Shown piece after piece: positions 14,255 to 16,140 of a stretch of 64,000 nt of DNA. Within the stretch, counting starts at the first letter, position 1. The number at the start of each line of letters is the position of its first letter. The notes under the pieces were generated by a model. It did no database searches, was not told where the DNA came from, and worked only from the letters and a program-made list of their open reading frames with translations. Source of the DNA: Escherichia phage YUEEL01. A program made the position numbers and the translations under genes. Location: sequence record NC_054935.2, one strand, 5' to 3'.

Positions 14255-15283
14255 ATGTCATCAATAGCTTGGATTGATAATGAGTTTGCATATCGTGCAT
14301 TAGCTCATTTACCTAAATTCACACAAGTAAATAATAGTTCAACTTTTAAATTACGGTTTAGATGCCCAGTTTGTGGAGATTCAAAAACCGACCAAAATAA
14401 AGCGCGTGGATGGTATTATGGTGATAATAATGAAGGAAATATTCATTGTTATAACTGTAACTATCATGCGCCAATCGGAATATATTTAAAGGAGTTTGAA
14501 CCTGATTTATATCGTGAGTATATCTTTGAAATAAGAAAAGAAAAAGGTAAAAGTCGTCCAGTAGAAAAACCTAAAGAACTTCCTAAACATCCTGAGAAGA
14601 AAATAATTAAATCTCTTCCGTCATGTGTTAGATTAGATAAACTGGCGGAAGACCATCCAATTATAAAATATGTAAAAGCTCGTTGTATTCCAAAGGATAA
14701 ATGGAAATATCTTTGGTTTACAACCGAATGGCCTAAATTAGTTAATAGTATAGCTCCAGGAACATATAAAAAGGAAACACCTGAGCCTCGTCTTGTTATT
14801 CCAATTTATAATGCTAACGGAAAAGCTGAGTCTTTTCAAGGACGTGCATTAAAGAAAGATGCTCCTCAAAAATATATCACCATCAAAGCTTATCCTGAGG
14901 CAACAAAAATATATGGAGTCGAACGAGTTAAAGATGGTGATGTATATGTTCTAGAAGGACCTATAGATTCACTTTTTATTGAAAATGGTATAGCTATTAC
15001 GGGTGGTCAATTAGACCTAGAAGTTGTTCCATTTAAAGATAGACGAGTGTGGGTTTTAGATAATGAACCTCGTCACCCTGACACTATCAAGCGAATGACT
15101 AAATTAGTTGATGCAGGAGAAAGGGTTATGTTTTGGGATAAATCTCCCTGGAAATCAAAAGATGTTAATGATATGATTAGAAAGGAAGGTGCAACCCCTG
15201 AACAAATTATGGAATATATGAAAAATAATATTGCCCAGGGGTTAATGGCTAAAATGCGGTTATCTAAATATGCCAAGATTTAA
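14255..15283 (+). CDS. 61: gp61 DNA primase
   Basis: 342 aa; zinc ribbon CPVCGDS...CYNC and TOPRIM-like core. Confidence 0.9.
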   Translation: MSSIAWIDNEFAYRALAHLPKFTQVNNSSTFKLRFRCPVCGDSKTDQNKARGWYYGDNNEGNIHCYNCNYHAPIGIYLKEFEPDLYREYIFEIRKEKGKSRPVEKPKELPKHPEKKIIKSLPSCVRLDKLAEDHPIIKYVKARCIPKDKWKYLWFTTEWPKLVNSIAPGTYKKETPEPRLVIPIYNANGKAESFQGRALKKDAPQKYITIKAYPEATKIYGVERVKDGDVYVLEGPIDSLFIENGIAITGGQLDLEVVPFKDRRVWVLDNEPRHPDTIKRMTKLVDAGERVMFWDKSPWKSKDVNDMIRKEGATPEQIMEYMKNNIAQGLMAKMRLSKYAKI

Positions 15284-15480
15284 ATTAACCCAACTAAAGC
15301 AAATGCTAGATCTACGAATGTATCAAGAGTAACTACTGGAATATTAACACCATGCGCAATTGCAATTGGTGATAAAATAAAGTTCCAGAGTAAAATTCCT
15401 ACCATAGCAGAAATAGTAAAAGCTATACGTTTTTTATTACCTTTTATGGCATTAACAAGTGCCATTAATTTTTGTGCCAT
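15280..15480 (-). CDS. small hydrophobic membrane protein
   Basis: 66-aa ORF with strong SD (GGAGG, 4-nt spacing); two hydrophobic segments. Confidence 0.4.
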   Translation of the reverse strand: MAQKLMALVNAIKGNKKRIAFTISAMVGILLWNFILSPIAIAHGVNIPVVTLDTFVDLAFALVGLI

Positions 15481-15524
15481 ATGTCCTCCTTTAAATTAAT
15501 ATTTATCACAAATTTCATAAATTT

Positions 15525-15554
15525 GTTTACTTTCTCAGCTTGTTATGGTATTAT
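15525..15554 (+). promoter_or_regulatory. T4-type early promoter
   Basis: GTTTAC, 18 bp, TATTAT. Confidence 0.6.
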
Positions 15555-15579
15555 AAAATAAATTGCTGAGGATGATATA

Positions 15580-16140
15580 ATGATTAATAAAATTGTGCAT
15601 GAAATGGCTTTAAACGGAGATTCATATAAAATATCTGCCGTAGTTGAAAATTTCATACTTAATAAAGTAAAAGAATATTTCACTGATTGTTCAGTTAGTT
15701 ATCAAGAAAAAATGGTTTTAACCGATGATACTGAAAAATCAAATAATTTGTTTTGTTCTAATTTTATAACTAAGAAGCGTACTAGAAGATTTGATATTGT
15801 TATTTCTCGCAACGGTAAAAAGCATATAATTGAAATTAAACACCAAGTTGGTGGAGGTACAGCTATTGATTCGGTTGGAATATATTTAGAAGATAAAGAG
15901 AAATTAAAAGAATACACAAAAACTGAAAACCCTGTGTCATTGATGATATTAGATTTTTTGCCATGCGGATATTATCCACGTAATAAATGGACAAAAAGAG
16001 AATCATTTACTGATAATCCAACCATCCAAGCAAGGTTTAATGAATATGCTAAATCACAAAACGTGTTAGTATTACTATCAAATACATATGATGAAGAATT
16101 ATATAATTCGTTTTTTGCTGCAATAAATGAGAGAATATAA
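15580..16140 (+). CDS. hypothetical protein with PD-(D/E)xK-like motif
   Basis: 186-aa ORF; [19 protein letters not shown] gives D-x13-E-x-K; stop overlaps dam ATG (TAATG). Confidence 0.5.

Follow-up and report, generated by a model that had tools for sequence, protein, structure and literature searches.

A putative PD-(D/E)XK nuclease gene coupled to dam in T-even phages: a candidate restriction-modification-like cassette

The interval between the primase gene 61 and the dam methyltransferase gene of Escherichia phage YUEEL01 (NC_054935.2) holds an open reading frame (ORF) of 186 amino acids (aa), here called R, whose product is predicted to be a compact PD-(D/E)XK protein akin to type II restriction enzymes, and a putative endonuclease. 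R and dam, with a predicted promoter of their own, form a variable unit of about 1.43 kb that is gained or lost as a unit among Tequatrovirus genomes. On balance this unit is probably a restriction-modification-like (R-M-like) cassette of about 1.4 kb, with early expression and a likely direction towards GATC, and the data favour a classical pairing of the R-M type over the other functions suggested for R, those of a methylation-sensing nuclease, a homing-type endonuclease or a host-takeover factor. Positions are those of the window, the whole stretch of 64,000 nt that was analysed. The order of genes along the T4 map is 61.1, 61 (primase), the interval under study, dam and gene 56, and several Tequatrovirus genomes (vB_EcoM-fFiEco06, JB75, PYps14T and others) match the region at 100% identity. 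The features of the locus are:

15492-16919, plus strand: R-dam cassette (promoter, putative nuclease gene and dam), about 1.43 kb, ends approximate
15525-15554, plus strand: predicted early-type promoter of the cassette, GTTTAC, 17-nt spacer, TGg, TATTAT (consensus scan)
15580-16140, plus strand: R, 186-aa PD-(D/E)XK restriction-endonuclease-like protein, PHROG 8706
15793-15840, plus strand: codons of the putative catalytic motif, D72 at 15793-15795, E85 at 15832-15834 and K87 at 15838-15840
16140-16919, plus strand: dam, D12-class N6-adenine (GATC) methyltransferase (Pfam PF02086, E 6.5e-51)
15505-16052: 548-bp segment deleted in T4, with 8-bp direct repeats ATCACAAA at 15505-15512 and 16053-16060
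14255-15283: gene 61 (primase)
15280-15480, minus strand: 66-aa membrane ORF (RB32ORF030w, PHROG 2024), a neighbour outside the R-dam cassette

This layout agrees with a preliminary description of the DNA, made from the letters of the sequence. An ORF check places the end of gene 61 at 15283 and the start of dam at 16140, and finds both the minus-strand 66-aa ORF behind GGAGG, a 4-nt spacer and ATG, and the plus-strand 186-aa ORF with a stop that overlaps the dam ATG. At this TAATG (16138-16142) the stop of R (TAA) and the start of dam have one base in common.

The variable unit is defined by its distribution. Of 50,697 phage records searched by megablast with the interval, 501 matched, and the locus takes three states among them. 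In 143 records (about 29%), T2 included, the order is 61, 66-aa ORF, R, dam, 56. A T4-like order, in which a remnant of R stands in place of the gene between the 66-aa ORF and dam, is found in at most 42 and roughly 35 records (about 7%), for which about half of the query was covered, in two pieces. About 320 records (about 64%) match query positions 1-292 only, that is, the end of gene 61 and the 66-aa ORF; both R and dam are missing from ECML-134 and the RB32-like vB_SsoM_113, where 61, the 66-aa ORF and 56 follow one another. Alignment with ECML-134 places the missing DNA at about 15491-16935 of the window, and short TTAA(A)TTAA repeats flank the cassette at 15494-15502 and 16912-16919. Megablast finds dam in 181 records, tblastn finds full-length R in about 152, and no record with R and without dam was seen among the matching phage records. 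R is lost while the methylase is kept, and never the reverse, which is the asymmetry expected of an R-M pair: the endonuclease is not kept without its methylase, and the methylase may persist alone. The adjacency of the two genes and their joint inheritance are likewise those of the endonuclease and methyltransferase genes of such systems.

The association of R with a methylase gene holds across deep divergence. R lies immediately upstream of a Dam methylase gene (PF02086 or a Dam-sized gene) in ten of ten lineages, in three genomic contexts, and the two genes overlap or abut in nearly all lineages examined. In Dhakavirus MX01 (R 64% identical to that of the window) R lies between the 66-aa ORF and dam, as in the window. 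In Jiaodavirus KPV15 (43%) it is found elsewhere, on the downstream side of rIIA and rIIB, with an overlap into the start of the Dam gene; in a related metagenomic contig, L022 (44%), a 263-aa Dam-sized ORF overlaps the end of R. Six further metagenomic homologs (P0002, P0005, P0006, P0009, P0011 and P0013; 63% down to 29% identity) have a PF02086 gene directly after R, usually with overlapping R and methylase codons, and the P0013 contig provides the third context, with the pair placed upstream of rIIA. Identity to the window falls in parallel for Dam (76, 72, 62, 55 and 52%) and for R (64, 57, 43, 32 and 29%), as expected of co-inheritance. The coupling of the 186-aa ORF to dam, first proposed from the single TAATG overlap, is thus a recurrent property of co-inherited genes, and the true partner of R is dam, not the 66-aa ORF.

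The Dam protein of T4 is a standard example of an orphan phage methyltransferase and a long-used model enzyme, and it looks like the survivor of an R-M-like pair after a 548-bp deletion. T4 (NC_000866) has an unannotated gap of 309 bp between dam and 61, which contains the intact 66-aa ORF and the last 28 or so codons of R, running into the dam ATG; tblastn finds R residues 159-179 only. In a MAFFT alignment T4 is without window positions 15505-16052, exactly between the two copies of ATCACAAA, a loss that takes the promoter and R codons 1-158 (85% of R). The 3' remnant of R and the repeat-bounded gap argue for a deletion in T4 rather than an insertion in the window phage. It had been noted that the T4 map has no named gene between 61 and dam, and an accessory insertion had been suggested. 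T4 does lack an annotation there, but the gap is not empty, and the remnant and the repeats rule out an insertion relative to T4.

Other alleles of R are also altered. In T2 a one-base frameshift changes the last residues, abolishes the TAATG overlap and leaves a protein of 181 aa, and truncated alleles are found in G29 (142 aa) and Bas37 (61 aa). The R remnant starts at residue 159 both with the window-type C-terminus (F1, Manna) and with the frameshifted C-terminus of T2/T4 type. A common start on two backgrounds suggests that the deletion is recurrent at the ATCACAAA microhomology or has been recombined onto different backgrounds.

The structure predicted for R by AlphaFold2 is a confident single domain (pLDDT 79, pTM 0.79) with a helix at residues 15-33, strands at 38-47, 67-77 and 80-88, further helices and a strand at 119-124. 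In this model R has the alpha-beta-beta-beta-alpha-beta core that defines membership of the PD-(D/E)XK superfamily. The best Foldseek TM-score is to MunI (TMq 0.59 / TMt 0.56), and EcoRI is among the matches. The acidic residue on the second strand and the (D/E)xK motif on the third that would provide metal binding and catalysis are present as D72 (strand 67-77) and E85-x-K87 (strand 80-88), with E23 on the first helix. All four residues are invariant in an alignment of nine sequences (A3, down to 29% identity), as are H88, Q89, G93-T-A-I-D-S98 and D125, so that R holds an intact, invariant putative E...D...ExK site. Fold model, Foldseek matches and the invariance of the D, E and K residues in all homologs uphold the PD-(D/E)xK assignment of the preliminary description. 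Its D-x13-E-x-K was correct as an arrangement but not in spacing, which is D72-x12-E85-x-K87. With 186 aa, R is about the size of MunI, whose crystal chain has 200 residues, and it need not therefore be a fragment.

Sequence profiles point the same way, with sub-threshold matches as the only family signals, and DpnII is the nearest named family, although R is not filed as a member of it. The window protein matches Pfam DpnII (PF04556) with 16.8 bits (E 0.0045) and its best-scoring relative, P0009, with 22.5 bits (E 8e-5). Such matches are found in five of nine members, the window protein included (E 8e-5 to 5e-3), and always fall at about positions 143-235 of the 278 in the profile. The PADLOC profile REase_II PDLC03548 matches three of the nine (E 9e-5, best 5e-6) at positions 149-239 of 290, and weak matches of R to BanI, SfsA and PDDEXK_11 carry the same message at the superfamily level.

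The R family is tiny. A search of 1.84 billion representative proteins with the R profile gave only 11 matches, a second search of 5.8 billion clusters gave no new members, and 185,579 bacterial and archaeal species genomes (GTDB) yielded no relatives; one locus was found in IMG/VR and three in JGI metagenomes. A family of this size offers no bridge sequence to DpnII or to any other named family. The plasmid neighbourhoods of Dam homologs, in which a DpnII-family protein was sought, were AlwI-family or methylase-only in five of five cases. Two metagenome clusters, P0008 and P0010, have the R part joined to an epimerase-like N-terminus or to an AsnA-like protein; both probably arose as chimeras in assembly or gene calling, and the alignments leave them out. 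R is named 'hypothetical' or 'uncharacterized' in the databases, and PHROG 8706 is listed as function unknown; the one exception is the record of the Shinka genome, with 'putative DpnII restriction endonuclease'. No account of the R ORF was found in the literature searched, in which older subscription papers are thinly covered. R-M pairs and PD-(D/E)XK enzymes are already known as kinds. What is unusual is an R-M-like pair in a virulent, hypermodified T-even phage, T2 included, an R family confined to such phages, a compact protein without half of the architecture of its nearest family, and the implication that the solitary Dam of T4 is a secondary state.

R is under purifying selection. The frame is intact in seven of seven lineages compared, and the proportion of non-synonymous differences (pN) is well under that of synonymous differences (pS) in all pairs. 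Between the window and MX01, pN is 0.24 and pS 0.65, and the rate ratio dN/dS is about 0.19 for R and 0.10 for Dam; in the more distant pairs synonymous sites have reached saturation. R diverges much faster than Dam, the homologs P0011 and P0013 (loci L013 and L014) being 70% identical in Dam and 35% in R. The R proteins of these two have N-terminal extensions of about 20-40 aa. The possibility that R is an N-terminally truncated pseudogene was considered and rejected, given the intact ORFs, the low pN and the MunI-like size.

The consensus scan finds, at 15526-15554, TTTACT and TATTAT separated by 17 nt and with an extended TG, which resembles sigma-70 promoters and the T4 early promoter consensus; phiSITE annotates the same promoter in phage JB75. 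Promoter-like matches in the scan were not above chance, with 11 found and 13 expected in shuffled sequence. The support for the promoter placed at 15525-15554 in the preliminary description comes instead from four other diverged lineages, MX01, KPV15, L009 and L014, in which GTTTAC or GTTACA, a 16-17-nt spacer, TGn and TAnnAT lie 25-35 nt before the start of R. Retention of this architecture across otherwise unalignable DNA argues that the promoter is real and of the T4 early type, so that conserved sequence in five lineages supports the prediction.

No other 4-bp palindrome in the 64-kb window is nearly as depleted as GATC, of which 77 sites are observed and 209.5 expected from a second-order Markov model (observed/expected, O/E, 0.37); the next lowest, TCGA and CTAG, have an O/E of 0.72. 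Only two GATC sites lie within 15280-16920. A ratio of 0.37 indicates long-standing selection against GATC in such genomes. The depletion fits long-term pressure from GATC-directed nucleases, but it is not specific to R and does not discriminate between models, and published work offers other explanations for the scarcity of GATC in enterobacterial phages.

The 66-aa ORF is an independent and constant neighbour of gene 61. It is hydrophobic, fits two transmembrane segments by eye, belongs to PHROG 2024 with an E-value of 1.6e-31 and runs tail-to-tail into gene 61, the two 3' ends sharing 4 nt. The ORF occurs in all three states of the locus and in a total of 690 phage records, where identity falls to 44-56% and the ORF always abuts the primase gene. 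The T4 copy is intact (T4 locus 3239-3439) and is unannotated in RefSeq NC_000866. A conserved T-even ORF at the same place in T4, the finding said in advance to count against the early proposal, exists for the 66-aa ORF only. That proposal was of a divergent two-gene accessory insertion, made up of the 66-aa and 186-aa ORFs, between 61 and dam. The two ORFs are indeed adjacent, divergent and about 100 bp apart, yet a module of this kind is now hardly credible and is refuted by the distribution. The 66-aa ORF is kept with or without R and dam (T4, ECML-134, the RB32-like phages and the 690 records), the 186-aa ORF comes and goes with dam, R occurs without the 66-aa ORF in KPV15 and L014, and the T4 locus is a deletion and not an empty site.

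Two possible control signals lie in or near the 66-aa ORF. Upstream of it is GATAAATA, one base off the T4 late-promoter consensus, TATAAATA; the T4 deletion ends just short of GATAAATA. A terminator-like hairpin at 15446-15465 on the plus strand, with an 8-bp stem followed by TAATTTTTGT, lies 160 nt past the gene 61 stop and within the antisense of the 66-aa ORF. A 2-kb scan gave three terminator-like sites where 0.5 were expected.

As an R-M-like cassette, R and dam would be transcribed by host RNA polymerase from their own early promoter right after infection, and Dam would be translated by coupling to R. R would act as a homodimer and cut GATC, or a GATC-related site, with unmethylated adenine, in the manner of DpnII and MboI. 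The phage DNA would be protected by Dam methylation and by its glucosyl-hydroxymethylcytosine (glucosyl-hmC), a protection that follows from established T-even biology. The targets may be under-methylated host or plasmid DNA, co-infecting phages, or hosts without Dam. The 'orphan' Dam of T4 would then have been left over once the 548-bp deletion took the promoter and most of R.

Several points weigh against this proposal. Nuclease activity is predicted for R from its sequence and its model, and a specificity for GATC is suggested by the partner methylase only. All DpnII scores among the nine members are under the Pfam gathering cut-off of 23 bits, only the catalytic core is matched, and R has no counterpart of the N-terminal 140 or so positions of DpnII. 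An NCBIfam search of R gave noise and no match, and an hmmsearch of PDB sequences with the R profile gave no matches at E <=10. The named hosts of the R-bearing phages are Escherichia, Shigella, Yersinia, Klebsiella, Salmonella and Serratia, genera that all methylate GATC themselves, so that a methylation-sensitive GATC enzyme would find few host targets. An R-before-M order with co-translation is unusual for a system that must establish itself in naive DNA. Lastly, about 20% of dam-bearing phages are without R, and others have truncated alleles, which implies that R is dispensable.

The difficulty of the host targets would be met if R were a methylation-dependent nuclease, similar to DpnI, that cuts Gm6ATC in ordinary cytosine DNA and degrades the host chromosome early. 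Host DNA, already Dam-methylated, would be topped up by the phage Dam, whilst glucosyl-hmC would spare the GATC sites of the phage. R would then be useful in hosts that are all Dam+, and its early expression and its strict linkage to a methylase that creates its target are also accommodated. However, the sequence-family signal is that of DpnII, which is methylation-sensitive, the best structural matches are classical type IIP enzymes, and the 186-aa single-domain model has no winged-helix or other methyl-reader domain. T-even DNA carries N6-methyladenine at GATC, so such an enzyme would rely totally on discrimination of hmC, and EndoII and EndoIV already deal with host DNA in T-even phages. 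DpnI-like cutting is thus unlikely. Somewhat less credence is given to a selfish or homing-type role, in which R would cut cassette-less or Dam-unmethylated T-even genomes in mixed infections and repair would copy R and dam into the rival, as SegF does for the gene 56 region, with dam serving as the immunity gene. The clean presence/absence polymorphism of about 1.4 kb, with its short flanking repeats, next to gene 56, is what such spread could produce; the cassette has moved among at least three loci in different genera, and in T4 SegF lies right beside the same locus. But R has no GIY-YIG or HNH Pfam match at E <=1, these being the families of the T4 Seg, Mob and Tev enzymes, and it would need an ability that most type II enzymes do not have, that of cleaving glucosyl-hmC DNA. 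The cassette is also a minority allele (about 29%) from which R is often lost, and a methylase partner is characteristic of R-M systems rather than of homing cassettes.

R may alternatively have ceased to be a nuclease and now be an accessory factor that binds DNA or associates with Dam, for instance to target or regulate it, or it may be a relic in decay. The missing DpnII-type N-terminus, the loss or alteration of R in T4, T2 (C-terminal frameshift), G29 and Bas37, and its faster evolution than Dam (35% and 70% identity between P0011 and P0013) could be taken in this sense. It is nevertheless quite improbable, since all four residues proposed for metal binding and catalysis have stayed unchanged across deep divergence, pN is well under pS, ORFs are intact in ten lineages, and 186 aa is a normal length for a complete small type IIP enzyme.

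A further idea, to be regarded as speculative and rather doubtful, is that the cassette is a phage-against-phage weapon, with R cutting GATC in hmC DNA that has no adenine methylation. About 64% of the matched Tequatrovirus records have no dam at the locus or elsewhere by megablast, and host Dam is not known to methylate the DNA of dam-less T-even phages. If the idea were true, a phage with both genes, such as T2, would destroy or exclude dam-less T-even rivals in mixed infections, and the T4-like phages with dam only would be immune non-killers, giving a three-way polymorphism of killer, immune and sensitive types. This would also help to explain the strong depletion of GATC.

If R and dam are an R-M-like pair, the closest known systems are those of the DpnII/MboI family with Dam-class methylases (PF04556 with PF02086), which act at GATC and are blocked by N6-methyladenine. 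The likenesses are the weak but repeated similarity in the catalytic core, the D12-class GATC methylase partner and the adjacency of the R and M genes; the homology of T4 Dam to DpnM has long been recognised. The differences are considerable. DpnII and MboI have about 280-290 aa, whereas R has 186, with the N-terminal half missing and with scores below the family threshold; the R gene precedes the M gene with overlapping codons, the carrier is a virulent hmC phage, and R has no bacterial or archaeal relatives in the species genomes searched. Also comparable with R are MunI and EcoRI, small alpha-class type IIP enzymes that leave 4-nt 5' overhangs, with MunI similar to it in size. Elements of EcoRI (sequence checked against PDB), E-x-K-H-Q-x-G and G-x-A-I-[DE]-[RS], can be seen in R too: E85-I-K-H-Q-V-G-G-G93-T-A-I-D-S may be set against E111-A-K-H-Q-G ... 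G140-N-A-I-E-R-S of EcoRI, as a resemblance only, since the spacing differs. Comparison of alignment A3 with EcoRI by hhalign gave a probability of 0.2%, that is, no supported homology. The recognition motif reads GTAIDS in R and GNAIER in EcoRI, and the target site of R is thus expected to differ from that of EcoRI.

Chlorovirus R.CviAI/M.CviAI (GATC) is a virus-encoded R-M pair that degrades host DNA. The likeness to R and dam is one of concept, a lytic virus with a putative early endonuclease/methylase pair of GATC type; the chlorovirus hosts belong to another domain, and GATC is already methylated in the hosts of T-even phages, which makes a role in host degradation doubtful. The T-even homing endonucleases such as SegF have in common with R a hyper-variable neighbourhood, a presence/absence polymorphism and the encoding of a (in R, putative) nuclease. 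R differs from them in its predicted PD-(D/E)XK fold, which is neither GIY-YIG nor HNH, and in its methylase partner. T4 Dam itself is treated under orphan, anti-restriction methylases in a 2025 EcoSal review (PMC12707154). The same dam gene (97% DNA identity between the window and T4) is solitary in T4 and is the second gene of a two-gene cassette in the window phage and T2.

The neighbourhood of the cassette is variable in other ways. T4 has the SegF homing endonuclease gene between gene 56 and soc (T4 locus 1107-1781, corresponding to about 17500-17570 in the window). In the near-identical phage JB75 gene 56 directly adjoins soc, and the same probably holds for the window. The presence of SegF in T4 and its absence from JB75 suggest that the sequences flanking the R-dam cassette are a preferred site for mobile nuclease genes. 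A few genes upstream, at 13729-14085, the window has a 118-aa ORF of the RB32ORF033c type in place of the 208-aa gene 61.2 of T4, which is another replacement polymorphism.

If T4 Dam does descend from an ancestral two-gene R-M-like cassette that is still present in T2, then its origin would be explained, and a classical phage studied for decades would be found to encode an unrecognised restriction-type nuclease. The question then raised is what a lytic, hypermodified phage gains from a restriction enzyme: an attack on host or plasmid DNA, the exclusion of rivals, or selfish spread. Natural genotypes with both genes, with the methylase only and with neither are already in collections, so that a direct comparison is possible. 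R itself would be among the smallest enzymes of its class, and may be tolerant of modified cytosines.

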